Shown here: positions 48,793 to 60,308 of the stretch, in pieces | Numbering within the stretch: the first letter of the stretch is position 1 | Layout: each line of letters begins with the position of its first letter | DNA from: Enterobacter phage vB_ExiM_F4M1E | Sequence record: OL744216.1 | DNA: 64,000 nt | Direction: 5' to 3' (one strand) | Position numbers and translations under genes: made by a program | The notes under the pieces: generated by a model | Told to the model about the DNA's origin: nothing | What the model saw: the letters and a program-made list of their open reading frames with translations, nothing else | Databases searched by the model: none

Positions 48793-48995
48793 CAAGCCCG
48801 GCCCGGTTGCAAGCGTCTTTACAGTTCTTTACAAAACTATTTTAGGCGAACTACCGGCGATCCACCTTCCGACCTGGCCCCGGTGCCCGGTACGTTAGCC
48901 CCGCCTTTTCGCCGTGGGGTGGCGTCTCCTCTCCTGTATGTGTACATTATGCACCAGGCCCGGCGGGCCGTCAATACAAAAATCAAAATAAATTT
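48793..48995 (+). ncRNA. candidate non-coding RNA between orphan promoter and GGCCCGgcGGGCC hairpin + A/T-rich end
   Basis: 200 nt GC-rich structured segment without ORF, bounded by promoter-like and terminator-like elements. Confidence 0.2.
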
Positions 48996-49390: not shown

Positions 49391-49417
49391 AATAATGCTT
49401 GACGGGGCCGACGATAG
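49389..49417 (+). promoter_or_regulatory. family promoter TTGACG-GGGCCgacgataGGCCC-CATAAT
   Basis: 17-nt spacer with GGGGCC/GGCCCC inverted repeat; CACATAGCGACGCAC motif follows. Confidence 0.6.
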
Positions 49418-49479
49418 GCCCCATAATTCACCACATAGCGACGCACACCGCGCCGCACTAACAAAGAGAGACCGTCATC

Positions 49480-49917
49480 ATGTTACATTCAATCAATAAA
49501 GAGCAAAAACTGTACGTCCTGAAGTGTGGCAACGGCTTTACCTGCTATGGGTTCGAAGTGCTGGACACAAACGCCCGCAAGGTTAAGCAGTGGTTAGAAT
49601 CTGAAGGTGCAACAGTTGAGGATCTGCCATATCGCAAGGGCACAAAGAAGCATTATAAAGCCTGTCAAGATATGATCGCCGCTGGTTGTGCTTATCATGC
49701 CAGAACGGGCAAACGCTGCCTTGCTGGACTCACCAAACAATTAAAGGGCCTGGAGGGTCGCCGGGTAGAAGTGATCACAATGTACGGCGAAAAGCGCCGC
49801 TTTATTGTGGGTCGCTCTACTGGCTGGATGCCTGCCCACCTGGAGATCGCCCGCGCTAACAGTAGCGGCGGCATGAGTGCAGAGCAGCAATATAAATCTG
49901 TAACCATCGTAAAATAA
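49480..49917 (+). CDS. array gene 2, hypothetical (145 aa, Cys-containing)
   Basis: CA-rich leader CTAACAAAGAGAGACCGTCATC-ATG. Confidence 0.55.
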   Translation: MLHSINKEQKLYVLKCGNGFTCYGFEVLDTNARKVKQWLESEGATVEDLPYRKGTKKHYKACQDMIAAGCAYHARTGKRCLAGLTKQLKGLEGRRVEVITMYGEKRRFIVGRSTGWMPAHLEIARANSSGGMSAEQQYKSVTIVK

Positions 49918-49930
49918 TTTAAAAAGAGTA

Positions 49931-49959
49931 TTGACACCGGGGCCACCTGGCCCCATAAT
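49931..49959 (+). promoter_or_regulatory. family promoter TTGACA-ccGGGGCCAccTGGCCCC-ATAAT
   Basis: consensus -35/-10, palindromic spacer; GCCCGGCAAA direct repeat follows. Confidence 0.6.
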
Positions 49960-50007
49960 ACAAACAAGCCCGGCAAATGGTGCCCGGCAAAATCAGAGAG
50001 TAAAGAA

Positions 50008-50230
50008 AATGGCTAAAGTAACCTATAAAAAATCACGTGGCGTCTCCTCTGTTAACCTGGCGGCGGTTGTAACCCTGCCCGCATACCGTACCCGTGACGA
50101 GGCGCGCGCCGTTGCCAGTAAGATCCGCGCCGCTGGCGTGACTCCGACAACGCCAACCAAAACGGCGGACGGCTGGCGCGTTACCGCAAAGCATAACGGC
50201 GGCACACTTTCCCGCAACACTCACCGCTAA
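50008..50230 (+). CDS. array gene 3, hypothetical (73 aa, start MAKVTYKK)
   Basis: AGAGAGTAAAGAAA RBS. Confidence 0.5.
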
Positions 50231-50239
50231 CCAATTGCA

Positions 50240-50262
50240 GGCCCCGCCGGGGGCCTTTTGTG
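50240..50262 (+). terminator. terminator-like hairpin GGCCCC-gccg-GGGGCC + TTTTGTGT
   Basis: same palindrome as promoter spacers, here followed by a T-run. Confidence 0.45.
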
Positions 50263-50275
50263 TGGAGTCAGTACC

Positions 50276-50620
50276 ATGACCAAACAGATCTACCATGTAC
50301 CGATCACGCCGCTTTTCCGTTGTCATATCTTTTATGACTGTAATGATCTTGCGGGGCAATGGATCGGCGATACCGATCAACAATATGATTTCCCGGAATG
50401 GGACGAACTAAACCGCCGTGTAAGCAACGCCGCACACAATGCCGATCCTGATAGCCTGGCGGACGTGGAACACTTCCCCGGCGGGGCCGCTTGCTTTCCT
50501 TATATTGAGATCACCGCGCCAACGTGGGCGCTATGTAAAGCGATGGGCGACGCCGTGATCCGTTGCATCCTGGACAATGGCGGGATCGTCGAACCAAAAG
50601 ACAACGGAATAAATATTTAA
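50276..50620 (+). CDS. array gene 4, hypothetical (114 aa, start MTKQIYHV)
   Basis: GGAGTCAGTACC RBS. Confidence 0.5.
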   Translation: MTKQIYHVPITPLFRCHIFYDCNDLAGQWIGDTDQQYDFPEWDELNRRVSNAAHNADPDSLADVEHFPGGAACFPYIEITAPTWALCKAMGDAVIRCILDNGGIVEPKDNGINI

Positions 50621-50639
50621 ATTATTTTCGTTTTAGGGG

Positions 50640-50668
50640 TTGACGCCGCCCGGGGTTACCCTCATAAT
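50640..50668 (+). promoter_or_regulatory. family promoter TTGACG-N17-CATAAT
   Basis: followed by CACATAGGGCGACGG motif. Confidence 0.55.
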
Positions 50669-50720
50669 GTACCACATAGGGCGACGGAATAACCCGCCGC
50701 CAAAACCAAAAGGTAACAGT

Positions 50721-50960
50721 ATGCAAACCGTAATGATTAGCCACCCGGATCACGCTTCAGACTTCTACGCCCCGATCTACGCCCCGCTTGATTGGCAACG
50801 CCAGGGCCTGCAAAAAACCGCCACGGGCTATGGCACAAAGATCCCAACGTCCTATATGTTGGACTATCAAGGCAAGCGCCGTCGGATCTACGTTGACCAG
50901 TACAGCAACAGCGGCCACACTTACATCATGATCAAAGGCGAAAAAATTACGGTCTGCTAA
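50721..50960 (+). CDS. array gene 5, hypothetical (79 aa, start MQTVMISH)
   Basis: CA-rich leader + AAAAGGTAACAGT. Confidence 0.5.
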   Translation: MQTVMISHPDHASDFYAPIYAPLDWQRQGLQKTATGYGTKIPTSYMLDYQGKRRRIYVDQYSNSGHTYIMIKGEKITVC

Positions 50961-50969
50961 AAATAATTG

Positions 50970-50998
50970 TTGACCGGGGGCCGGAAAGGCCCCATAAT
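50970..50998 (+). promoter_or_regulatory. family promoter TTGACC-GGGGGCCggaaaGGCCCC-ATAAT
   Basis: 17-nt palindromic spacer. Confidence 0.6.
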
Positions 50999-51030
50999 AC
51001 CAGACATACCAAACAAACGAGGCTTTACAA

Positions 51031-51261
51031 ATGAATCTGACTACTATCGGCGCTAACCAAACTATGATCACCCTGGCAAATGGCGCACAGGTTTTCTTTT
51101 CCTACAATACCCCGGTTGCGGCATACCTGCCCGGAGAGGGCTACTTGGTGACCGCCACAAAGCACAGCGCCACCACCTCAAAGCATGTTAATGCTTGGGC
51201 TGGCAAAGGTTGCGAGACCCGCCCACAGGAATTTTTTGATAATCTTATCAAATCCGCTTGA
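51031..51261 (+). CDS. array gene 6, hypothetical (76 aa)
   Basis: leader ACCAAACAAACGAGGC. Confidence 0.5.
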   Translation: MNLTTIGANQTMITLANGAQVFFSYNTPVAAYLPGEGYLVTATKHSATTSKHVNAWAGKGCETRPQEFFDNLIKSA

Positions 51262-51287
51262 CGCTGGTTTCTGCCGGGGTATATAAT
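51258..51287 (+). promoter_or_regulatory. family promoter TTGACG-N18-TATAAT with CCGGGG-tatataat-CCCCGG palindrome spanning -10
   Basis: palindrome arms flank the -10 hexamer. Confidence 0.55.
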
Positions 51288-51339
51288 CCCCGGCATAGGC
51301 AAGCGAAAGCAAACAACCAAACCGAAAGGATACCAAACG

Positions 51340-51720
51340 ATGAATATTTTCAACACTGTAAACGCCGCCGACATCAAAGAAATTTCCGTAACTGGCAAAC
51401 GTTGGTTTCAGCGTAGCTATGGCAACACGTATCACAGCGTAAGCGTCGCCGCCGTGGTATCACGTGAGACAGCCGAAAACTTGGGGGCTAATCCATCCCC
51501 GGCGGGATCTGGCGACGTGTGGATCGACCTGGGTTATGTTGGGTTCGCTTATGGTTATGATCGCGGGTTCGAACAAACCGCCCTGGCTATCCTGATCGAG
51601 GCTGTAAGCGATGCGCCGCAGGACTGGAAACAAAATTCATACGCTTGCCAGGTGGCAACGGCTTTAAATGTGCCTTACTCCGAAAACGTTTATGATGTTA
51701 GCCGCAAAAAGGATTTATAA
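51340..51720 (+). CDS. array gene 7, hypothetical (126 aa)
   Basis: leader CAAACAACCAAACCGAAAGGATACC. Confidence 0.55.
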   Translation: MNIFNTVNAADIKEISVTGKRWFQRSYGNTYHSVSVAAVVSRETAENLGANPSPAGSGDVWIDLGYVGFAYGYDRGFEQTALAILIEAVSDAPQDWKQNSYACQVATALNVPYSENVYDVSRKKDL

Positions 51721-51726
51721 TTTAGG

Positions 51727-51756
51727 TTGACACGGGGCCGGGTTAGGCCCCATAAT
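51727..51756 (+). promoter_or_regulatory. family promoter TTGACA-cGGGGCCgggttaGGCCCC-ATAAT
   Basis: palindromic spacer. Confidence 0.6.
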
Positions 51757-51788
51757 ACCCACAGACCCAAACAAAAGAGTAAAACGCG

Positions 51789-51998
51789 ATGATTAACGAG
51801 CAGCAAGTAAACGACGTAAAACATGAGGCTTATCAGGTGGCGATCCGTAGTGGTTCCCGCGCCGCCTTCAATCTGGTTGTTGAGTTGTACCCTGAACAGG
51901 CGGAAAATATTTTAATGCAGGTTTCCGTATTACTGGAAGCAACAAAGCACACCAAATTAAGCGCCGGGATCGATAAGCTGGCAAAAAGTTTAAAATAG
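51789..51998 (+). CDS. array gene 8, hypothetical (69 aa)
   Basis: leader CCCAAACAAAAGAGTAAAACGCG. Confidence 0.5.
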   Translation: MINEQQVNDVKHEAYQVAIRSGSRAAFNLVVELYPEQAENILMQVSVLLEATKHTKLSAGIDKLAKSLK

Positions 51999-52002
51999 TT
52001 GT

Positions 52003-52031
52003 TGACTCTTACCCCGTCCCGCTGGCATAAT
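52003..52031 (+). promoter_or_regulatory. family promoter TTGACT-N17-CATAAT with GTCCCGCT...AGCGGGAC palindrome spanning -10
   Basis: 8-bp arms flank the -10. Confidence 0.55.
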
Positions 52032-52086
52032 AGCGGGACTGATTAAGAGAAACACCACACAAACCAAACTAAAGAGAGTAAACATT

Positions 52087-52476
52087 ATGAACGCTAATTA
52101 TGACTTTTCCCAAATGGTTGTCGCATCCTCTACCGATCTGCGTAACTTCCGCAAAGAAAATAACTTTTACAAGGCCGTTCACCTGGTCGGGCTGGTAGAC
52201 GGGGAGATCAAAGATCTGGCGGAGGTTTCATTCTACGGCACCGGGAAAACCAACACGGCTATTTTGTGGATTCACTCCCCGATCCTGTCTCTCTATGGTT
52301 CAAGCGCTGGCAAGGCTGGCGGCTACGGTTACAACCGTGAGGACGCCGCTTTTCAAAGCGCCTTGCGGGGAATGGGGATCAAAAGTACAGGTTACGAATT
52401 GCCACGTGATTTTTTCCCGGCGCTTGCAAAGCATTTAGGGGTTGATGTATACTCAATCATCGAATCACACGGTTAA
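52087..52476 (+). CDS. array gene 9, hypothetical (129 aa)
   Basis: leader ACCACACAAACCAAACTAAAGAGAGTAAAC. Confidence 0.55.
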   Translation: MNANYDFSQMVVASSTDLRNFRKENNFYKAVHLVGLVDGEIKDLAEVSFYGTGKTNTAILWIHSPILSLYGSSAGKAGGYGYNREDAAFQSALRGMGIKSTGYELPRDFFPALAKHLGVDVYSIIESHG

Positions 52477-52481
52477 TATGA

Positions 52482-52796
52482 ATGATAACTATTCTCACAA
52501 TGCTGGGACTTGCGGCGGCGGCGATTTACTGCGTCGCTACTTATAAAGCGTCTGTATGGCGAAAGGGTCAAAAAATGTACGGCTATTTTGAATATGAGTA
52601 CAAAGGGGAGAAGGGATCAAGCCGGGACTATGGCGCGATGTTAGAGATCGATATGGTTGGCGCGATGAACTACCGCCAGGAGTTGGGCGCGGTGATCACG
52701 TATGAAGTTTACAAGTCATCTGAGGATGAGATCGGGCAGATAATTGATCAACGTTACTATATGGAACAGCAACAAAACAAACGCCGGAGAAAATGA
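52482..52796 (+). CDS. array gene 10, membrane-anchored protein (104 aa)
   Basis: N-terminal TM helix ILTMLGLAAAAIYCVATY. Confidence 0.5.
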   Translation: MITILTMLGLAAAAIYCVATYKASVWRKGQKMYGYFEYEYKGEKGSSRDYGAMLEIDMVGAMNYRQELGAVITYEVYKSSEDEIGQIIDQRYYMEQQQNKRRRK

Positions 52797-52933
52797 GAAT
52801 GATTCACACTAACGAGAACCGCCAAAAGGCACGACCCCGCGCCCGCCTGTCATATGCTGAAGCCGAGGACCGCCTACAGCGTGAAAAGAGCAACAAACAA
52901 CAGCGCCGCAAAACGCGCTATAACTGGGAGTAA
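52793..52933 (+). CDS. array gene 11, basic micro-protein (46 aa, MRMIHTNEN...)
   Basis: ATGA overlap; its start codon context AAATGAGAATGATT is itself a Fur-like/ATTCTCAT box. Confidence 0.3.
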   Translation: MRMIHTNENRQKARPRARLSYAEAEDRLQREKSNKQQRRKTRYNWE

Positions 52934-52977
52934 GCGCCCCGGCAGGGAAACACTAGGCCAAACCGTTTAAACCGCAC

Positions 52978-53005
52978 AGGGGGCCTTACAGGCCCCTTAT
53001 TTTTG
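52978..53005 (+). terminator. rho-independent terminator GGGGCC-ttaca-GGCCCC + TTATTTTT
   Basis: family palindrome used as terminator stem with a T-run. Confidence 0.6.
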
Positions 53006-53009
53006 ATCT

Positions 53010-53249
53010 ATGGGGTACACAATGCAAAACCTTTACAGCATGACAGAATTTATCCGCCTCCTGGCGGGCCGTCCGATGGGCTTTACCTGCCTTTACTTGG
53101 TAAACGACGGCAAAGGCTACCGGATAACCTCAAAGTCATTAGCCGCCATTGCAGCGCGGGAAGGGGTGAAGATCTCCACCTCTCAGGCGCTCATTGTTGA
53201 CCCGGCGACCGTGGCGACGATTGAGGCGATCCGAGTCACCGTAAAATAA
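53010..53249 (+). CDS. array gene 12, hypothetical (79 aa; alternative start 53022)
   Basis: no dedicated promoter, may be read through. Confidence 0.4.
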   Translation: MGYTMQNLYSMTEFIRLLAGRPMGFTCLYLVNDGKGYRITSKSLAAIAAREGVKISTSQALIVDPATVATIEAIRVTVK

Positions 53250-53273
53250 TTCAAATATTTTCATTCCGGGGCT

Positions 53274-53301
53274 TGACGCCCGGCCCCGGTTCCCCCATAA
53301 T
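53274..53301 (+). promoter_or_regulatory. family promoter TTGACG-N16-CATAAT
   Basis: followed by CACATAGCGACGCACACCGCGACGCAC direct repeat. Confidence 0.55.
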
Positions 53302-53352
53302 ACACCACATAGCGACGCACACCGCGACGCACCAAACAAAAGAGAGTCCGTA

Positions 53353-53772
53353 ATGTCTACTAAAAATCCTTTCCGCATCAAATCAGGTTTATCCGTTTAC
53401 GCACTGGCTTGCGGCTACGTTCAGCAAATCGACACCGAAGTAACCGGGGAAAGTATCCGGGTACAATTGAGAATGGAACACGGCGCGTTTCACGTGCAGG
53501 CGTACAACTTCACCGAACACGGGCGGATCGAATGGGTAGTAGAGGACATGATCGGCGACGCTCGCACACAATGGCAACGCCTTGTAAATCAGATTTTTGG
53601 CGACACCATAAAGGCGACCAAAAAGGATCGCCGCTATACGGTAAATCGTGAGTATCGCGGGGAGAGTGACCCGGCGTATGTGACCCGCTTTTGTGGGGAG
53701 TATGTAGACTACAGCGACACCGCCGCCGCTGGCTGGATTAAGGCCGCAGAACACAAGGCCGGAAAACTTTAA
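53353..53772 (+). CDS. array gene 13, hypothetical (139 aa)
   Basis: leader CACCAAACAAAAGAGAGTCCGTA. Confidence 0.55.
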   Translation: MSTKNPFRIKSGLSVYALACGYVQQIDTEVTGESIRVQLRMEHGAFHVQAYNFTEHGRIEWVVEDMIGDARTQWQRLVNQIFGDTIKATKKDRRYTVNREYRGESDPAYVTRFCGEYVDYSDTAAAGWIKAAEHKAGKL

Positions 53773-53780
53773 AATAGTTG

Positions 53781-53810
53781 TTGACGCCGGGCACCGTCCC
53801 GGCTTACAAT
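53781..53810 (+). promoter_or_regulatory. family promoter TTGACG-CCGGGcaccgtCCCGG-cttACAAT
   Basis: variant palindrome CCGGG/CCCGG. Confidence 0.55.
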
Positions 53811-53841
53811 ACCCAAACACAAACAAAAGAGAGTCAACACC

Positions 53842-53994
53842 ATGAAACATTATTTAGTAAACATCCCTGGCGTGGCTGGCCCGCTGAAAGTTTACGGCTA
53901 CGACGAACAGGACGCAAGAAAGCGCCTACGTGATCGGGAAGGGTACGGATCACGCCTCCCACGTGGCACAAAACTTTATTTGCAAAACGCTTGA
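53842..53994 (+). CDS. array gene 14, micro-protein (50 aa)
   Basis: leader CACAAACAAAAGAGAGTCAACACC; 3' end overlaps the next promoter. Confidence 0.4.
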   Translation: MKHYLVNIPGVAGPLKVYGYDEQDARKRLRDREGYGSRLPRGTKLYLQNA

Positions 53995-54020
53995 CGTGTG
54001 GTTATGCCGTCGCCTACAAT
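53991..54020 (+). promoter_or_regulatory. family promoter TTGACG-N18-TACAAT with TATGCCGT...ACGGCATA palindrome spanning -10
   Basis: 8-bp arms flank the -10. Confidence 0.5.
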
Positions 54021-54066
54021 TACGGCATAGACAAACGAAAGCAGACAACCAAACGAGGGTTAAATT

Positions 54067-54360
54067 ATGTTTGAAGTATTCGCCGGAATGTGCTTTTATG
54101 CCGCCGCCGCTTTAAAGCAGTGTGATGATTTTGTTGTGGAGTCCTACGACGATCCGCTGACGTGTGAGATCGTGGCGACCGATTACCGCCAGGACACCCG
54201 CTGGATTAACCCGGCTTGTATTCCATCGCCAGAAGTCGAACCGATGCCAGAAGGCGAAGAGATTCAAGATCCTGCCGTGGCTGTTACCTCGTTTTTTGTG
54301 GATAATCTGGACGCCGCCGCGCTGGTCCAAATGTACGCAAGCCAGGAGGCCGCACAATGA
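54067..54360 (+). CDS. array gene 15, acidic hypothetical (97 aa)
   Basis: leader CAAACGAAAGCAGACAACCAAACGAGGG. Confidence 0.5.
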   Translation: MFEVFAGMCFYAAAALKQCDDFVVESYDDPLTCEIVATDYRQDTRWINPACIPSPEVEPMPEGEEIQDPAVAVTSFFVDNLDAAALVQMYASQEAAQ

Positions 54361-54500
54361 ACCACAGCCGCAACATTGCAAAGCGCCGCCGCCCTAATTC
54401 CAGCGCCGCCAATGATGAGCGCCGGATCGCTGGTTTCATCGCTTGCGGCTACACCGTACAGCAGGCCCGGCAAATGGTAAAAGCAAAAGGCAGAAAATAA
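54357..54500 (+). CDS. array gene 16, basic micro-protein (47 aa)
   Basis: ATGA overlap with gene 15. Confidence 0.35.
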   Translation: MNHSRNIAKRRRPNSSAANDERRIAGFIACGYTVQQARQMVKAKGRK

Positions 54501-54503
54501 TTG

Positions 54504-54533
54504 TTGACACCGGGCACCGTCCCGGCTTATAAT
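54504..54533 (+). promoter_or_regulatory. family promoter TTGACA-CCGGGcaccgtCCCGG-cttATAAT
   Basis: near-duplicate of promoters at 53781 and 54755. Confidence 0.55.
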
Positions 54534-54571
54534 TCAGCTACACCAAACAAAACAGGCAAACGAGGCCACAA

Positions 54572-54751
54572 ATGAAATCATCCTTACTTTTCGCCCTGGT
54601 AGACATAGTGATCGGCAATGGTTGCGGTCAACATACCTTCATTGCAAACCGTCCCTATCCGCTCAAATCGTTGCAGGCCGACGCCCGCCTAACCGCCGGG
54701 CAGATCCGCCGCTACTTTCGTGAACCACACCCGGCAAAAACTGCAAAATAA
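54572..54751 (+). CDS. array gene 17, micro-protein (59 aa)
   Basis: leader ACACCAAACAAAACAGGCAAACGAGGCC. Confidence 0.4.
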   Translation: MKSSLLFALVDIVIGNGCGQHTFIANRPYPLKSLQADARLTAGQIRRYFREPHPAKTAK

Positions 54752-54754
54752 TTG

Positions 54755-54784
54755 TTGACGCCGGGCACCGCCCCGGCTTATAAT
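54755..54784 (+). promoter_or_regulatory. family promoter TTGACG-CCGGGcaccgcCCCGG-cttATAAT
   Basis: near-duplicate. Confidence 0.55.
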
Positions 54785-54814
54785 TACCGAACACAAACAA
54801 ACGAGGCTACAAAA

Positions 54815-55114
54815 ATGCAACAGGCAAACACTCTTTTCATTCTGGCAAACGTAGCGGATCACGTTGTGGCGTCACTGTCCAACGTGGCGGGCACCGTGCA
54901 GATCATTTGCCGCCATATGGATGACACCGCGCCGAACCGCCTACAAATCAACGTAGACCGTAAAGGGGCCGACTTTGTGATCTCTTATGATGCCATTTAC
55001 AACGGGCGGCGCTTTATGCAGGCCAAAAGCGACCCGATCCCGGCTAACTACATTCAGGAGGCGATCGCCGTCCTGGTAAACGACACTATCCCGGCGGGGG
55101 CTATGTTACCATGA
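54815..55114 (+). CDS. array gene 18, hypothetical (99 aa, start MQQANTLF)
   Basis: leader ACACAAACAAACGAGGCTAC. Confidence 0.5.
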   Translation: MQQANTLFILANVADHVVASLSNVAGTVQIICRHMDDTAPNRLQINVDRKGADFVISYDAIYNGRRFMQAKSDPIPANYIQEAIAVLVNDTIPAGAMLP

Positions 55115-55266
55115 ATCCGCATAAACTTTTAATCACCGCCTACCCAAACAAGGCGGATCGCCGTGAAACTTTGGACCGCTTAACCCTGTATTATCAGGAG
55201 GCCGGGCACAGTAAAGCGACGGCCCGCGCCTTGGCTAAAAAACGTTTACGTTTTGGTAAAAATTAG
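55111..55266 (+). CDS. array gene 19, basic micro-protein (51 aa)
   Basis: ATGA overlap. Confidence 0.35.
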   Translation: MNPHKLLITAYPNKADRRETLDRLTLYYQEAGHSKATARALAKKRLRFGKN

Positions 55267-55267
55267 C

Positions 55268-55296
55268 TTGACGCCCGGCCCGAAAGGGCCGATAAT
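55268..55296 (+). promoter_or_regulatory. family promoter TTGACG-cCGGCCCgaaaGGGCCG-ATAAT
   Basis: followed by CACATAGGGCG + GCGGGGA-atggt-TCCCCGC hairpin. Confidence 0.6.
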
Positions 55297-55342
55297 CTCT
55301 CACATAGGGCGGGGAATGGTTCCCCGCATTATCTAAGAGGTT

Positions 55343-55501
55343 ATGAATATGTTTACTTTGATGACTTGGGAACACGAATCAAGCGCCCCTGTCCGCCGGA
55401 CCTTTGAAAACTTATGCGCCGCTTATCGCCTGGCGCAAGGCGGTTACTATAAAGCCCAAATCATCGACGAAAATAATATTGTAATGTACGAATTTAAATG
55501 A
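55343..55501 (+). CDS. array gene 20, micro-protein (about 51 aa)
   Basis: TAAGAGG RBS; two in-frame ATGs. Confidence 0.4.
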   Translation: MNMFTLMTWEHESSAPVRRTFENLCAAYRLAQGGYYKAQIIDENNIVMYEFK

Positions 55502-55530
55502 TTGACATCCGGCCCGAAAGGGCCGATAAT
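55502..55530 (+). promoter_or_regulatory. family promoter TTGACA-tCCGGCCCgaaaGGGCCG-ATAAT
   Basis: duplicate of 55268 promoter. Confidence 0.6.
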
Positions 55531-55566
55531 GACCCCACACCAAACAAAAGAGAGAGAGACCGTAAA

Positions 55567-55773
55567 ATGATTACTATGATTCTTCAAAAGTCCCGCCTGA
55601 TTGATGTTACCGTTACCCTGTCCGCTTGCGGTGACACGTCCCGCCGGGCCGATCATTACCAGGTGACCGCTGTTAGTGATCGCGGCGCTGTCCTGCTGTC
55701 TGAAGTAACAGAGCATTTGCACGAGGCTTTTAAAACCTATTCAAAGTGGAAAGGCGACGAAGAAATAAAATAA
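55567..55773 (+). CDS. array gene 21, hypothetical (68 aa, start MITMILQK)
   Basis: leader CACCAAACAAAAGAGAGAGAGACCG. Confidence 0.45.
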   Translation: MITMILQKSRLIDVTVTLSACGDTSRRADHYQVTAVSDRGAVLLSEVTEHLHEAFKTYSKWKGDEEIK

Positions 55774-55781
55774 AAATCCGC

Positions 55782-55811
55782 TTGACGCCGGGGCCACGTT
55801 GGCCCCATAAT
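55782..55811 (+). promoter_or_regulatory. family promoter TTGACG-ccGGGGCCAcgtTGGCCCC-ATAAT
   Basis: palindromic spacer. Confidence 0.6.
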
Positions 55812-55845
55812 GCCACCACACCAAACGAATAAAGAGAATCACAAA

Positions 55846-56100
55846 ATGTTAAAATTCATCAAATCACTTTTCACCCGCACCACCCCGGCTTGCAAGTTGC
55901 CACCCCTGGAGGCTAAAGGCGTGATCGCTCGCAAAGTCTCAGAATTGTTTATCATTTCATTGGTTCACAACGGCGGAGACTGTTACGAAATCATCGAAAT
56001 GGGCCGCTACACTAAAACAGGGTCAAGCCGTGTCCGTTACGGTGAACACCGCGCCCGGAATCATTTTGATTCTGTATGCTGTATGGTGGGTGCAAAATAA
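55846..56100 (+). CDS. array gene 22, hypothetical (84 aa, start MLKFIKSL)
   Basis: leader CACCAAACGAATAAAGAGAATCAC. Confidence 0.5.
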   Translation: MLKFIKSLFTRTTPACKLPPLEAKGVIARKVSELFIISLVHNGGDCYEIIEMGRYTKTGSSRVRYGEHRARNHFDSVCCMVGAK

Positions 56101-56103
56101 ACC

Positions 56104-56132
56104 TTGACGGGGCCAACGTTAGGCCCCATAAT
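56104..56132 (+). promoter_or_regulatory. family promoter TTGACG-GGGCCaacgttaGGCCC-CATAAT
   Basis: followed by CACATAGGGCGACAC motif. Confidence 0.6.
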
Positions 56133-56184
56133 GTAACACATAGGGCGACACAACGCCGCCCACAAACAGAAAAGAGATCGTAAA

Positions 56185-56544
56185 ATGAGCAAATACACCC
56201 CGTGGGAACCAATGTACAAAATCACCCTGTCCGAGTGCAGCAAAAACGAACTGGATGGAATTGTCCGCGCCGCTACTGCCGTGATCCGTGGGCTTAACTT
56301 CAAACGTTTAACCTTCAAAGAAGTAAAACAAATTTTTGAAATGCCGGATCACAAGGCCGCTTCCCGCTTGGGGCTTACTGTAACATCGCAAGGGCTTTAC
56401 AAAGATCACGACCTTAAAGGGCCGCACGTGTGGCTTTTAGCTTGCGCCGTGGGCCGCACCATTGCCGACACTATCAAAGAGATGAAAGCGCTACGCGATG
56501 ACGCAAAAGCCCGCCGGGCCGCGCTGGAAGTGGCACAAAAATAA
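56185..56544 (+). CDS. array gene 23, hypothetical (119 aa)
   Basis: leader CACAAACAGAAAAGAGATCG. Confidence 0.55.
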   Translation: MSKYTPWEPMYKITLSECSKNELDGIVRAATAVIRGLNFKRLTFKEVKQIFEMPDHKAASRLGLTVTSQGLYKDHDLKGPHVWLLACAVGRTIADTIKEMKALRDDAKARRAALEVAQK

Positions 56545-56557
56545 TTTAAAAATAAAG

Positions 56558-56587
56558 TTGACGCCGGGAAGCGTTACGGGCTATACT
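56558..56587 (+). promoter_or_regulatory. family promoter TTGACG-N18-TATACT
   Basis: degenerate palindrome CCGGGaagcgttaCGGG. Confidence 0.45.
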
Positions 56588-56635
56588 CTTTTCATCGGGT
56601 CACAACAGACCAAAACAAACAAAGAGAGAAACAAA

Positions 56636-56713
56636 ATGAGCGTAATCTTCCTGGTATCTGTTTTCGTAGCTATCGCATCTTCTACCGCAATTTGTATCAA
56701 ACTGGGATACTAA
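56636..56713 (+). CDS. array gene 24, 25-aa hydrophobic peptide (MSVIFLVSVFVAIASSTAICIKLGY)
   Basis: own promoter and leader ACCAAAACAAACAAAGAGAGAAAC; single TM helix. Confidence 0.4.
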   Translation: MSVIFLVSVFVAIASSTAICIKLGY

Positions 56714-56717
56714 TAAA

Positions 56718-57110
56718 ATGACTACTTTCAACGTTTTAAACTTAAACGCTTTTATCGCGGGTTACATTGAGGCAATGTTTTTTGCAGAGTCCGCCACCGA
56801 TAGCGACGGCGAAGAAATCGAAAGTTTAGCCGGGTATGAGTTAAGCGCTGAAGCCCTGGACGCTGCCCGCATGGATTGCGCCCGCTTTATGGATGTTGCG
56901 CCGCTGTTACTCAAAGGGGCAATGTTGGCAGGGGTTGACTACGACCACACCCAGGCAGGCCGGGATCTATGGTTTAGCCGTCAAGGTCACGGCGTAGGAT
57001 TCTGGGATCGCGGACTTGGGACGATCGGTGATAAACTTCACGACGTGGCGCAGACTTTCGGATCAAAAAATCTGTTTATCAATGATGCTGGATTTATTGA
57101 GGTAGAATAA
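56718..57110 (+). CDS. array gene 25, acidic hypothetical (130 aa)
   Basis: follows peptide gene. Confidence 0.5.
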   Translation: MTTFNVLNLNAFIAGYIEAMFFAESATDSDGEEIESLAGYELSAEALDAARMDCARFMDVAPLLLKGAMLAGVDYDHTQAGRDLWFSRQGHGVGFWDRGLGTIGDKLHDVAQTFGSKNLFINDAGFIEVE

Positions 57111-57571
57111 TGAACCTTACAGATCTGAAGTATTACGATGAATTAACCCCAGCGGCGCAAGCTGAAGCCCGGCGCAACGTTGCCGCCAGTGTGCAGACTC
57201 ACCACGGGCGGGAAATCGGAAAGGCGTTTTTTAAATTCCAGCGGGACCCAAACAAGGCGATCAATGACCCGCTACACATCCGCCGGATCGTCAACGGCGG
57301 CGAAGCGTGGCGCAAGATCCGCCAGGAGGGCGACGCCTATCTAATCCGCTTTATCCGGTCCAATAAAGTGATCTTTACTGATTGCGGTGCGTATGTGGCG
57401 TATGTGGACGCCTTCACAATGTTTATTGATGGGTTGGAATACATACCCACAGCCGAACAGCAAAAGACGCTTAGAACGCCTTACATCGACGTTAACGGGC
57501 GCGGCCCGGCGTTTCATAATTGGCTATACCGTATGCACCACAAAATAAAGTTTTTCATGATCCGGGGTTGA
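57110..57571 (+). CDS. array gene 26, hypothetical (153 aa)
   Basis: ATGA coupling. Confidence 0.5.
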   Translation: MNLTDLKYYDELTPAAQAEARRNVAASVQTHHGREIGKAFFKFQRDPNKAINDPLHIRRIVNGGEAWRKIRQEGDAYLIRFIRSNKVIFTDCGAYVAYVDAFTMFIDGLEYIPTAEQQKTLRTPYIDVNGRGPAFHNWLYRMHHKIKFFMIRG

Positions 57572-57596
57572 CACCCGGCGGAATAGGGCCGATAAT
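57568..57596 (+). promoter_or_regulatory. family promoter TTGACA-N17-GATAAT
   Basis: followed by CTCATAGGGCG + CGGGGA-atgg-TCCCCG hairpin; overlaps the end of gene 26. Confidence 0.55.
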
Positions 57597-57649
57597 GTCT
57601 CTCATAGGGCGGGGAATGGTCCCCGGCCCAATGACCTGGAGTCAGTACA

Positions 57650-57901
57650 ATGGAAATCAAACACGTAATTTCTGCAAACGTCGCCGTTTTAGGTTCTGTA
57701 AGTGAAACCCGTGTGAGTCTCGCTAAATGGTGCGCCGCTCAAACTTTCGGGAGTTACGGCGAAAAGGTAACAGAGGTTAAGCGCTTGCTTTCCTTTGGTA
57801 ACGTGGGCCGCAAGTTGTTAACAGAGGATATCGCCCGCCGGGTTGAGATCCATTATTCACTTGCTCAAATCATCGTAAAAGAGATCGAAAGCGTAATTTA
57901 A
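57650..57901 (+). CDS. array gene 27, hypothetical (83 aa)
   Basis: GGAGTCAGTACA RBS. Confidence 0.5.
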   Translation: MEIKHVISANVAVLGSVSETRVSLAKWCAAQTFGSYGEKVTEVKRLLSFGNVGRKLLTEDIARRVEIHYSLAQIIVKEIESVI

Positions 57902-57909
57902 CCCGGCCC

Positions 57910-57925
57910 GGCCCCGCAAGGGGCC
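57910..57925. repeat. promoterless GGCCCC-gcaa-GGGGCC hairpin
   Basis: family palindrome without -35/-10 or T-run. Confidence 0.35.
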
Positions 57926-57937
57926 AACAGAGGACAA

Positions 57938-58162
57938 ATGAGAATGATTATCAAAAACACTTTGGGCAAAACTGATTTTCTGCGCTCGCTGGAGATCGGC
58001 AAGCCGCAAGCCTGGTATTGTAAAAAGCTGGCGCATGATGAAATGAAAGATTTTACAGCCACGTTAACCCGCGTTAAAATCAGCATTACCCAAAAGAAAG
58101 CGCTTTTAGTGATTGAGGGGCAGATCCCGCAAACCGTGATCATTGTTGAGAGGACCGCATAA
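57938..58162 (+). CDS. array gene 28, hypothetical (74 aa, MRMIIKN)
   Basis: AGAGGACAA RBS; start context AAATGAGAATGATTATCA is a Fur-like box. Confidence 0.45.
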   Translation: MRMIIKNTLGKTDFLRSLEIGKPQAWYCKKLAHDEMKDFTATLTRVKISITQKKALLVIEGQIPQTVIIVERTA

Positions 58163-58163
58163 A

Positions 58164-58388
58164 ATGGGGGCCAATACTCGCAACCGCTACGGCATAACGC
58201 GCCGTTTCGGGGTCTGCTATATGCTGGCAGATGATCCACAATATCGGGCCTTGCTGGAGGCTTACCAGGTCACCAAACTGGACGCCCAAAAGGGCCGGGC
58301 CGAACACGACGCCCACACCGCCAACATTAAAGCGCTTCACGACTTTTTAGCCGTCGCGGAAAAGCGTCACGACATCCGCCACAATTGA
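58164..58388 (+). CDS. array gene 29, hypothetical (74 aa, start MGANTRNRYG)
   Basis: GAGAGGACC RBS. Confidence 0.45.
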   Translation: MGANTRNRYGITRRFGVCYMLADDPQYRALLEAYQVTKLDAQKGRAEHDAHTANIKALHDFLAVAEKRHDIRHN

Positions 58389-58398
58389 GGGCCGAACC

Positions 58399-58593
58399 AT
58401 GATCACAGCTTCAGAGATCCGCCAAACGTTAGCCGCCTTGCGTTACCTCCACGCCTTACGCCGGGAAAGTGATCCGACTTATGCCGGGTCATGCCTGGCT
58501 AACGATGCCGAAAACGGGATCGCCACACTGAAAGAATTAAATGATCGCATGAGCGACAGCGACCGATCCGACTTTATCGGGGGCGAAATATGA
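58399..58593 (+). CDS. array gene 30, hypothetical (64 aa)
   Basis: ORF. Confidence 0.45.
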   Translation: MITASEIRQTLAALRYLHALRRESDPTYAGSCLANDAENGIATLKELNDRMSDSDRSDFIGGEI

Positions 58594-58898
58594 TCGCCAT
58601 TACGCCAACCGTTTTAGATTGGTATCGCCAGCAGATCGCGCCGCCGCTGGCTATCTTCAAACAGGCCGAAAGCAAACAGCGCCGGATCTCCATTCATGAG
58701 ATCATTACGCTTAACGCTGGGCAGAAAATGAATGTTTCCCGGTCCCATATGGGCAACACGTTAGCGCTTTTAAGTTTACGCCGCAAGCGTCAACGGTTAA
58801 CCCTGGAATCACTCCGCATGATGGGACAGCCGCACCAGGTCACCGGGGACAGGATCGCCAGGGCATGGAACCGGGCAAACAGTCGAAAGGCTGGATGA
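58590..58898 (+). CDS. array gene 31, hypothetical (102 aa)
   Basis: ATGA coupling. Confidence 0.45.
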   Translation: MIAITPTVLDWYRQQIAPPLAIFKQAESKQRRISIHEIITLNAGQKMNVSRSHMGNTLALLSLRRKRQRLTLESLRMMGQPHQVTGDRIARAWNRANSRKAG

Positions 58899-59041
58899 AT
58901 TAACAGTGTTCACAGGGGTTGACTTGTTCGCCCCTTTTTTGTTATCCTTTTGTCATGCGATGGCACCTGATGCAGGGGGAGACAAACACCGGACCTGCCC
59001 GCTATTCAGGGAGGCGGACCGGACCTGGGCCGCGCCGGGCA

Positions 59042-59063
59042 AATGAGAATGGTTATCATTCCC
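59042..59063. promoter_or_regulatory. Fur-like / ATTCTCAT box AATGAGAATGGTTATCATTCCC in intergenic region
   Basis: 14/19 match to Fur consensus. Confidence 0.35.
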
Positions 59064-59317
59064 AACAAAATCAAATACATACTTTAAAACCGTTGTCAAA
59101 TTTATTTCTTACCCCTGTATAAATGTACATGCCCGCCAAACGCTCTAAAACGCGTTTTAAGCCGTTTTGCCCTTCCCCGGTATCCTACACCATAAAAATA
59201 TAGATCGCCCGAAATCGGACTTTCGCACTTTTTGTCCTTGCAAACGTGAAATTTTTATGTTAGGCCTGAAGGGCTGAAAGCCGGGTGTACGTTGACAAAA
59301 CTTTACAAAACTCCCTA

Positions 59318-59346
59318 TTGACGCCCGGCCCGTTATCCCTGATAAT
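59318..59346 (+). promoter_or_regulatory. family promoter TTGACG-N17-GATAAT (second TTGACA 26 nt upstream)
   Basis: followed by CTCGTAGGGCGGC motif. Confidence 0.55.
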
Positions 59347-59398
59347 GTATCTCGTAGGGCGGCAATGATGCGACGGCCCACAAAGAGGGGACAGTAAA

Positions 59399-59638
59399 AT
59401 GAAAGAAATCATGACCTTGGTAAAATCCCGTATGTTACGTGGCGGATTCAACGCATACGCCGACGGCAATATCATTGCCACGGTCGCAAAAGTTACAAAA
59501 AATGATAATGATTCTCAGTTCGCCGGGCAGTATCGGATCTGTTTTACCCGTGGAAAGTTGCAAGGTAAAACGGCATACGCACCAGATTTTCAAGAGCTTA
59601 ATGATCGTATTTGCGCCGTTTTAGATTTTGCAAAATAA
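59399..59638 (+). CDS. array gene 32, hypothetical (79 aa)
   Basis: AAAGAGGGGACAGTAAA RBS. Confidence 0.5.
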   Translation: MKEIMTLVKSRMLRGGFNAYADGNIIATVAKVTKNDNDSQFAGQYRICFTRGKLQGKTAYAPDFQELNDRICAVLDFAK

Positions 59639-60275: not shown

Positions 60276-60279
60276 AGAG

Positions 60280-60308
60280 GCCCGCCACCCCGGCGGGCTT
60301 TTCTTTTG
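60280..60308 (+). terminator. rho-independent terminator ending the plus-strand block
   Basis: GCCCGCC-acccc-GGCGGGC + TTTTCTTTT. Confidence 0.7.

Follow-up and report, generated by a model that had tools for sequence, protein, structure and literature searches.

Interchangeable 5' leader hairpins downstream of early promoters in a Certrevirus-like Enterobacter phage and its relatives

The promoter array and its leaders

Enterobacter phage vB_ExiM_F4M1E carries, on the plus strand of the 64,000-nt stretch analysed here (OL744216.1; the window), about 21 near-consensus σ70 promoters between 49.0 and 59.7 kb, each with a small open reading frame (ORF) downstream (21 cassette promoters in 11 kb). 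This work concerns the 5' leaders of the messages expected from these cassettes, a subset of which is predicted to open with a short G+C-rich hairpin. A preliminary description of the window had drawn attention to a sequence, CACATAGSGCG, just downstream of seven of the promoters, and had read it as one conserved site that splits the array genes into two regulatory classes, either as a leader RNA element (for antitermination, RNA stability or riboregulation) or as the target of a factor that acts on the initiating complex.

In nucleotide comparisons, the 49-60 kb region matched Certrevirus and other Vequintavirinae (rV5-like) myophages: Pectobacterium phages POP17 and POP18 (83% coverage, 88% identity), Enterobacter phage SS-2025 (79% coverage, 90% identity) and Klebsiella phage KaOmega (44% coverage, 92% identity), with further matches in CR3, CR8, CR9 and phiTE. 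The source phage is classified by this similarity as Certrevirus-like, within the Vequintavirinae. Its array promoters consist of TTGAC(N), a 17-18 bp spacer holding a G+C inverted repeat, and (C/G/T)ATAAT; a consensus scan returned 38 σ70-like sites vs 13.1 expected, and the 21 cassette promoters ranked at the top. The Certrevirus early promoter has already been published as AAAA(N3)TGTTGAC(N19)TATAAT (Buttimer et al. 2020, PMC7344957), and the published promoters are reported to cluster in the short-hypothetical-ORF region of CB7, CR3, CR8 and CR9. These are the same promoters as ours; that paper describes the promoter alone, and a term search of its text found no mention of a downstream motif, leader hairpins or leader classes (PMC7344957). 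Likewise, a term search of the rV5 genome paper found no mention of a motif or hairpin downstream of the promoter (PMC3606486), and our literature search found no Vequintavirinae transcriptome or start-site map.

Eight leaders of the array contain a hairpin. All seven motif-plus leaders fold, with energies of −8 to −20 kcal/mol, whereas the motif-minus leaders of the array reach 0 to −3.6 kcal/mol, except that of promoter 49931, which has a hairpin of its own. The seven motif-plus promoters are of the σ70 type, lie on the plus strand and have 17 bp spacers. The first (49399-49427; TTGACG, CATAAT), whose spacer holds the inverted repeat GGGGCC/GGCCCC, is followed by CACATAG and a hairpin that we call type B, GCGACGC-ACACC-GCGCCGC (49432-49456, hairpin 49438-49456; −8.4 kcal/mol), ahead of the ORF at 49480-49917. 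Promoter 50640-50668 (TTGACG, CATAAT) precedes CACATAG and a type A1 hairpin, GGCGaCGG-AAUAAC-CCGcCGCC (50673-50701, hairpin 50680-50701; −13.7 kcal/mol for the 47-nt leader), before the ORF at 50721-50960. At 53273-53301 (TTGACG, CATAAT) the promoter leads into CACATAG and a type B2 hairpin, GCGACGC-ACACC-GCGACGC (53306-53330, hairpin 53312-53330; −8.1 kcal/mol), before the ORF at 53353-53772. Promoter 55268-55296 (TTGACG, GATAAT) is followed by CACATAG and a type C hairpin, GCGGGGAA-UGG-UUCCCCGC (55301-55327, hairpin 55309-55327; −15 kcal/mol), in which AUAG can additionally pair with a downstream UUAU; the ORF at 55343-55501 encodes a DUF7170 protein. The type A2 hairpin, GGGCGaC-ACAAC-GcCGCCC (hairpin 56143-56161; −9.2 kcal/mol), follows promoter 56104-56132 (TTGACG, CATAAT) and CACATAG (element 56137-56161) and precedes the ORF at 56185-56544.

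The two remaining motif-plus leaders depart from CACATAG. Promoter 57568-57596 (TTGACA, GATAAT), which heads a five-gene unit (57650-58898), is followed by CTCATAG and a type C2 hairpin, GGGCGGGGA-AUGG-UCCCCgGCCC (57601-57629, hairpin 57607-57629; −19.8 kcal/mol), where CAU can pair with a downstream AUG. Promoter 59318-59346 (TTGACG, GATAAT) is followed by CTCGTAG and the weakest hairpin, type D (59351-59379, hairpin GGGC...GCCC at 59357-59379; −9.0 kcal/mol), before the ORF at 59399-59638. The eighth hairpin, AGCCCGGCAAAUGGUGCCCGGC (49966-49988, plus strand; −11.1 kcal/mol), lacks CATAG and lies between promoter 49931-49959 and the ORF at 50009-50230. When full leaders were folded through the start codon, the Shine-Dalgarno sequence and the AUG were unpaired; with the Shine-Dalgarno sequence left accessible, translational occlusion was rejected as a role for the hairpin. 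For the eight gene products encoded behind hairpin leaders, PHROGs and Pfam returned only 'unknown function' and DUF7170, and the leader classes did not differ in any functional theme.

Two of the hairpin loops contain an AUG that opens a mini-ORF, in the type C leader (55316-55336) and in the 49931 leader (49977-50003). The peptides would be MVPRII and MVPGKIRE, each ending at a UAA that adjoins the Shine-Dalgarno sequence of the real gene. The loop AUGs have no preceding Shine-Dalgarno sequence, and the mini-ORFs are therefore probably a by-product of the common AAUGGU loop. The hairpin-less leaders of the array (49.4-59.7 kb) contain hardly any U and little G between about +3 and the Shine-Dalgarno sequence, and a typical one reads CACACCAAACAAAAGAGAG; the T counts of hairpin-less leaders at positions 10-16 were 7, 2, 7, 20, 1, 0 and 0 out of 131.

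Sequence inspection found the motif at all seven sites. Five of the promoter coordinates first given for them stand (−35 TTGAC at 50640, 55268, 56104, 57568 and 59318), while 49389 and 53274 are corrected to 49399 and 53273. The motif had been placed 3-6 nt after the −10 hexamer; its start is fixed at 4 nt in all seven cases. The sequence is CACATAGGGCG at three sites (50673, 55301 and 56137), CACATAGCGACGC at two (49432 and 53306), and CTCATAGGGCG and CTCGTAGGGCG at one each (57601 and 59351). Allowing at most one mismatch, CACATAGSGCG had 5 matches vs 1.34 expected, and TAGGGCG occurs five times on the plus strand of the 64 kb, every time at a motif site; since the copies are paralogues and orthologues of one another, these counts are not independent events.

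We then counted the bases at each position after the −10 hexamer in 195 cassettes from the source phage and nine relatives (KaOmega, phiTE, POP17, SS-2025, CR3, PcCB7V, SSBI34, CR9 and P7_Pc). CA at the start site, in the context CACA(TA), is common to nearly all of them, and CATAG occurs in the same register in 27 leaders that have no hairpin, for example in the GGCATAG(A/G)CAA(A/G)CGAAAGCA family of promoters 51258 and 53991. Across the ten phages, TAG stands at the identical offset in every one of the 52 hairpin leaders with CATAG. The motif subset is set apart by the G plus G(G/C)GCG, which is the 5' arm of the hairpin. The motif is thus not a unit but a common start-site context joined to the first arm of a 5' leader hairpin.

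Several other elements of the preliminary description resolve into the same structure. A hairpin had been seen at only two sites; the hairpin is real, but it is present at all seven, and at 57.6 kb it is GGGCGGGGAAUGGUCCCCGGCCC and not GCGGGGA..TCCCCGC. As for the GCGACGCAC direct repeat, exact copies are confined to 53312-53320 and 53324-53332, within and just beyond the type B2 hairpin; because GCGNCGC is self-complementary, it is better read as a hairpin of 3+1+3 bp. A division of the array genes into regulatory classes is plausible, with the hairpin and not the motif as the dividing feature and with at least three leader types instead of two.

Leader hairpins in related phages

Scored within the first 36 nt of the leader, hairpins were present in 64 of the 195 cassettes of the ten phages, and each phage has kept 3-9 of them. 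They occurred in 52 of the 79 CATAG leaders and in 12 of the 116 others (Fisher p = 3e-16, on counts that are not independent). Judged from sequence, hairpin leaders are a previously undescribed feature of about a third of the early cassettes and are conserved across the Vequintavirinae. In pattern scans of IMG/VR for relatives of the motif, ATAATNNNNCACATAGGGCG returned 20 loci, made up of Certrevirus-like contigs, a single family of T1-like phages and several matches that look accidental; RTAGGGCGGGGAATGG added CR3 alone; and the 14-mer CATAGCGACGCACA returned more than 120 loci, which were treated as chance and not used because nearly all were on contigs unrelated to the source phage.

We assembled 25 distinct hairpin sequences, including two from the Vequintavirus EI-SP-GF, some from the unclassified Vequintavirinae phage SSBI34, two from L007 (a 149 kb metagenomic contig) and one from T1-like phages. 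All of them fold. Types A1, A2 and B have a GCGAC/GCCGC core in common and show coordinated changes on both arms of a stem of about seven levels that begins at the same G; within a type, variation is mostly in the loop and in the bases of the mismatch. When 12 distinct relatives of types A2 and B were aligned without gaps, standard pairs filled 86.9% of cells vs 70.6% in shuffles, none of 500 shuffles reached the observed value, and slid controls were 18-56% paired. Of the seven pairs, three are substituted on both sides, two of them from G-C to C-G and one from G-C to A-U. For the type C family, a MAFFT alignment was misaligned because of loop indels and was used solely for reading by eye, together with the folds, two stem levels that are swapped between Certrevirus GCGGGGAA/UUCCCCGC and Vequintavirus GGCGGGAA/UUCCCGCC; pairs were counted formally only in the gap-free alignment of types A2 and B. 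These comparisons give good support to the view that base pairing, and not sequence, is conserved in the leader hairpins, and that it is kept by compensatory changes.

The hairpins also appear to move between genes. The MSKYTP gene has a type A2 leader in the source phage, POP17 and P7_Pc and a type B leader in CR3, while the MSTKNP gene has type B in the source phage and A2-like hairpins in phiTE, PcCB7V and CR3. One hairpin type can stand before unrelated genes. Compared with SSBI34, a hairpin has been gained before the MNLTTIGANQ and MQQANTLF orthologues and lost before those of MSKYTP and MNMFTL. In these comparisons the leader hairpin behaves as an exchangeable module that is swapped, gained and lost by recombination between cassettes.

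Similar shuffling is known from the promoter-early stem-loop (PeSL) cassettes of T4-type phages (PMC2839356, PMC4122927), where arrays of small ORFans each have a strong σ70-like promoter and a G/C stem-loop and recombination shuffles the modules. Here too, σ70 promoters stand before small ORFans and leader types are swapped between orthologues. However, the PeSL stem-loop is a terminator upstream of the promoter (PMC2839356), whereas the leader hairpin lies downstream of the predicted +1 and has no U tract; the source phage has, in addition, an inverted repeat inside the promoter spacer, and the Vequintavirinae are unrelated to T4-type phages. The PeSL precedent, the swaps at MSKYTP and MSTKNP and the changes relative to SSBI34 would all be expected if the hairpin were a neutral passenger of the repeated promoter cassettes, spread or homogenised by recombination and without a function of its own. 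A passenger would hardly account for pairing that survives double substitutions and coordinated register shifts, for 3-9 copies in each of ten phages and similar hairpins in a Vequintavirus, or for a hairpin start held within a few nucleotides, and we consider this account improbable.

One leader of this kind lies outside the Vequintavirinae. T1-like phages (Shigella phages 2019SD1 and pSf-1 and Escherichia phage damhaus) have a single leader of the form CATAAT-aaat-CACATAGGGCGGCACGGCGTCGCCC-ACAAAAC...AGGAG...ATG (L012 7560-7655; also L008, L013, L014, L017 and L018). It is identical to 56127-56166 of the window at 33 of 40 nt, with no other DNA similarity, and has no good −35 element upstream. 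On the minus strand of the T1-like contig L018 (133-293) there is a homologue of the 52-aa DUF7170 protein of the source phage (55338-55495), with a T1-type promoter and an unstructured leader in front; this homologue indicates that the two phage families exchange small early genes.

Some features of the hairpin leaders are more constant than pairing would require, and these bear on a different reading, in which the AUAG tail and hairpin form a recognition tag. Bound by a phage or host protein or RNA, the tag would mark a set of early messages or promoters as co-regulated, for instance to protect them, to control their translation or to shut them off at a set time. Both AUAG and the 5' arm G(G/C)GCG show more conservation than pairing calls for, the loop AAUGG(U) recurs on different stems (types C and C2, the 49931 leader and L007), the loop ACAMC recurs in types A2 and B, and an unpaired A·C is conserved in the stem core. 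Yet loops vary by type (ACAAC, ACACC, AAUAAC, AAUGG, AAUGAC), stems covary freely, and different hairpin types interchange before one gene. Nor was a candidate binding protein identified, the neighbouring proteins all being of unknown function in PHROGs and Pfam, and Rfam gave nothing relevant in a gathering-threshold search of all 64 kb or an E-value search of 49-60 kb. A recognition tag carries the most weight among the rivals considered here, ahead of an effect on initiation, the neutral passenger, a structure on the other strand or in DNA, and a T7-like promoter, in that order, but is in our judgement unlikely. We give slightly less weight still to the idea that AUAG plus hairpin, instead of stabilising messages in a general way, serves as a mobile post-transcriptional tag that a specific factor reads through the recurring AAUGG and ACAMC loops, the A·C mismatch and AUAG. 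If true, such a tag would define an early-gene regulon, and its T1-like copy would point to exchange between unrelated coliphage families.

Start site, strand and other features of the array

E. coli RNA polymerase starts at positions 6, 7, 8 and 9 after the −10 hexamer in 8, 55, 29 and 7% of cases and strongly favours a starting purine preceded by a pyrimidine (PMC5730371). In the 64 hairpin leaders, position 6 is A in 44, position 7 is C in 57 and position 8 is A in 60. The A at position 8, following a C, is therefore the likeliest start, and by the same rules the A at position 6, likewise preceded by C, would be a less likely alternative. The motif had been assigned to the start of the transcript (+1 to +12), which agrees with the E. 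coli rules for a start that is predicted and not a mapped 5' end. Counted from the predicted +1 A, the 25 distinct hairpins begin 0-8 nt downstream, 22 of them within 5 nt, and with a start at this A, 8 nt after the −10 hexamer, the unpaired 5' tail is mostly 3 nt. In folds of types C and C2, even the 5'-most nucleotides can pair with sequence after the stem.

The fixed register relative to the −10 hexamer could also mean that the element acts as DNA or on the initiating complex, so that AUAGGGCG would tune start choice, abortive cycling, escape or early pausing and the hairpin would be secondary. Hairpin leaders mostly follow promoters with a 17 bp spacer (50 of 64, including all eight in the source phage), and the initial transcribed sequence is reported to modulate phage promoters limited by escape (PMC12464699). 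Such an effect leaves unexplained why the 3' arm is always complementary and why pairs covary, and CATAG without a hairpin is common (the 27 leaders above). By inspection, CATAGG also lacks the final T needed by a −10-like σ-dependent pause element, for which reason that element was rejected as a candidate. We hold an initiation effect to be doubtful. The consensus for capping with nicotinamide adenine dinucleotide does not fit on inspection, and this candidate was rejected.

The same bases might also be read differently, with CACATAGGG serving a single-subunit phage RNA polymerase of the T7 kind as a promoter that overlaps the σ70 one. T7-group promoters have a consensus of about 23 bp, from −17 to +6, and there is a superficial likeness to the T7 core CACTATAGGGAGA. 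Anchored on ATAGGG, however, the upstream match is about 4/7 by inspection, and only with a 1-nt gap; only ATAGGG and parts of CAC align, the bases upstream being those of the σ70 −10 and spacer, and at two of the seven sites GCGAC replaces GGG. The source genome itself was not searched for an RNA polymerase gene, but the related Certrevirus phage CB7 is reported to lack one (PMC7344957). Given the poor consensus match and this report, we rejected a T7-like promoter and give it practically no chance.

The hairpin might alternatively be a functional structure on the other strand or in DNA, either an antisense weak terminator for leftward transcription or a palindrome or cruciform. In types A1, A2 and B, the antisense hairpin is favoured over the sense hairpin by 4-6 kcal/mol, because the conserved A·C mismatch in the GCGAC/GCCGC core becomes G·U, and a scan flagged the minus strand of the type A2 hairpin (56143-56161), followed by TATGTGTT, as terminator-like. 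But this A2 copy is the only one of the eight elements flagged, in a lenient scan, and an antisense intrinsic terminator was rejected on that ground. The antisense tail is CUAUGUG, with no real U tract, a promoter scan found no strong leftward promoter within the array, and a bidirectional terminator at 60276-60302 already ends it. Moreover, three variants have a G·U pair on the sense strand, and the element always stands at +4 of a rightward promoter. This reading appears very unlikely. A sense-direction attenuator or terminator was rejected as well, since there is no U tract and the sequence after the hairpin is A/C-rich.

Besides the bidirectional terminator that closes it, the array contains intrinsic terminators at 50239-50256 and 52978-52998. 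The genes that come after them, at 50277-50620 and 53010-53249, have no promoter of their own and would thus need read-through for expression. In three cassette promoters (51258-51300, 52002-52045 and 53991-54030) the −10 hexamer sits in the loop of an inverted repeat, for example TGCCGGGG-TATATAAT-CCCCGGCA and CCCGCT-GGCATAAT-AGCGGG, while the remaining cassettes have the inverted repeat in the promoter spacer; two of the three have a GGCATAGRCAARCGAAAGCA leader.

At the left edge of the array lies a divergent leftward promoter of the same type (48946-48974, minus strand), with ACATAC at the corresponding leader start. The leader of its PcCB7V counterpart (L026, minus strand, 7975) begins ACATAGCGGG, which pairs with CCCGCTAT about 45 nt downstream. 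Near the right end, the ORF-poor stretch 58900-59300 (conserved core 58936-59055) has a promoter-like site at 58919-58948 and a near-repeat, ACCGGACCTGCCCGC / ACCGGACCTGGGCCGC, and has CACCGGACCTGCCCGCTATTC in common with the leader of the PcCB7V minus-strand promoter. Matches to it at 80-89% conservation, without an annotated feature, occur in many Vequintavirinae, Salmonella and Klebsiella phages among them; the stretch may be what is left of a gene or a non-coding RNA that has been conserved.

A proposed role of the 5' stem-loop in message stability

A stem-loop a few nucleotides from the 5' end is a classic protection of E. coli mRNAs from 5'-end-dependent decay, and on this basis we propose that early mRNAs with a hairpin leader form a class of greater stability. 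Host σ70 RNA polymerase would initiate at the A of CA|UAG, 8 nt after the −10 hexamer, giving a transcript pppAUA(G) that enters directly, if it folds in vivo as computed, into a G+C-rich stem-loop of 5-10 bp with the 5' arm G(G/C)GCG, leaving the ribosome-binding site unpaired. Paired structure so near the 5' terminus would impede RppH and the 5'-end-dependent entry of RNase E; the pyrophosphohydrolase RppH is reported to prefer single-stranded 5' ends (references in PMC3997798). Messages with a hairpin would then outlast those of neighbouring cassettes with unstructured CA-rich leaders, and two post-transcriptional classes would arise from near-identical promoters. That the hairpin is a 5'-terminal stem-loop slowing 5'-end-dependent decay on a subset of early mRNAs, a role inferred for a computed structure, is the explanation we favour, and we put its chances at about even.

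There are several points that weigh against this explanation. The type D hairpin folds no better than shuffles (z = −0.3), and the covariation rests on few independent events. The SSBI34 orthologues that gain or lose a hairpin imply that it is not essential for any one gene. The antisense strand of types A1, A2 and B forms the more stable hairpin, as described above, and a sense-strand G·U pair is found in only three variants (PcCB7V, L007 and T1-like), so that a comparison of the two strands by stability and by G·U against A·C showed no clear preference for either. Pairing alone would not require AUAG and the 5' arm to be as conserved in sequence as they are; recombination may have homogenised them, the initial transcribed sequence may be constrained, or a factor may recognise them. 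Emory et al. 1992 reportedly set the limit for ompA-type protection at 2-4 unpaired nt, and 5'-terminal stem-loop protection is said to have been treated further by Bouvet and Belasco 1992, Arnold et al. 1998 and Bricker and Belasco 1999 (all four listed in PMC3997798). A start at position 6 would lengthen the single-stranded tail by 2 nt, to 5-6 nt, at or beyond that limit, and even with 3 unpaired nt RppH may retain some access.

Among known systems, the ompA and papA 5' stem-loops are like the leader hairpins in being short, a few nucleotides from the (here predicted) 5' end, conserved in structure rather than in sequence, and upstream of a free ribosome-binding site. Unlike them, the phage hairpins belong to much shorter leaders of phage early genes and come in multiple exchangeable copies per genome, with a conserved AUAG tail and a conserved A·C mismatch; for the phage leaders the stabilising effect is what we infer. 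The T7 gene 10 (phi10) mRNA has a G-rich 5' hairpin just after +1, before an unstructured translation-enhancing leader, and is thus another phage mRNA with a hairpin in this position. However, T7 RNA polymerase transcribes it from a class III promoter, and the similarity is only that of AUAGGG to GGGAGA.

Promoter-proximal RNA hairpins in phage early transcripts are also known from antitermination: lambda nut boxB has a fixed GNRA-like pentaloop and is accompanied by boxA, and HK022 put is about 70 nt with two stem-loops. The leaders described here differ in having a single short hairpin with variable loops and no Rfam match, most units are single genes running into the next promoter, and no boxA-like CGCTCTT is visible in the leaders on inspection. 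Of the roles first suggested for a leader RNA element, RNA stability fits best with a hairpin that shows compensatory changes, whereas we found no evidence for nut/put-type antitermination or for a known riboregulator.

The T4 protein Srd stimulates RNase E. Since rV5 is reported to encode a homologue of Srd (PMC3606486), hairpin protection could be relevant in rV5-like phages. The leaders offer a natural set of short, interchangeable 5' hairpins with compensatory variants for studies of mRNA 5'-end protection during infection. For the phages themselves, the published Certrevirus early promoter gains a downstream layer, which sorts near-identical promoters into classes according to what follows them: a 5' hairpin, CA-rich unstructured sequence, or GGCAUAGRCAARCGAAAGCA. 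These classes may provide a simple and testable reason why expression or persistence would differ among dozens of early genes of unknown function.

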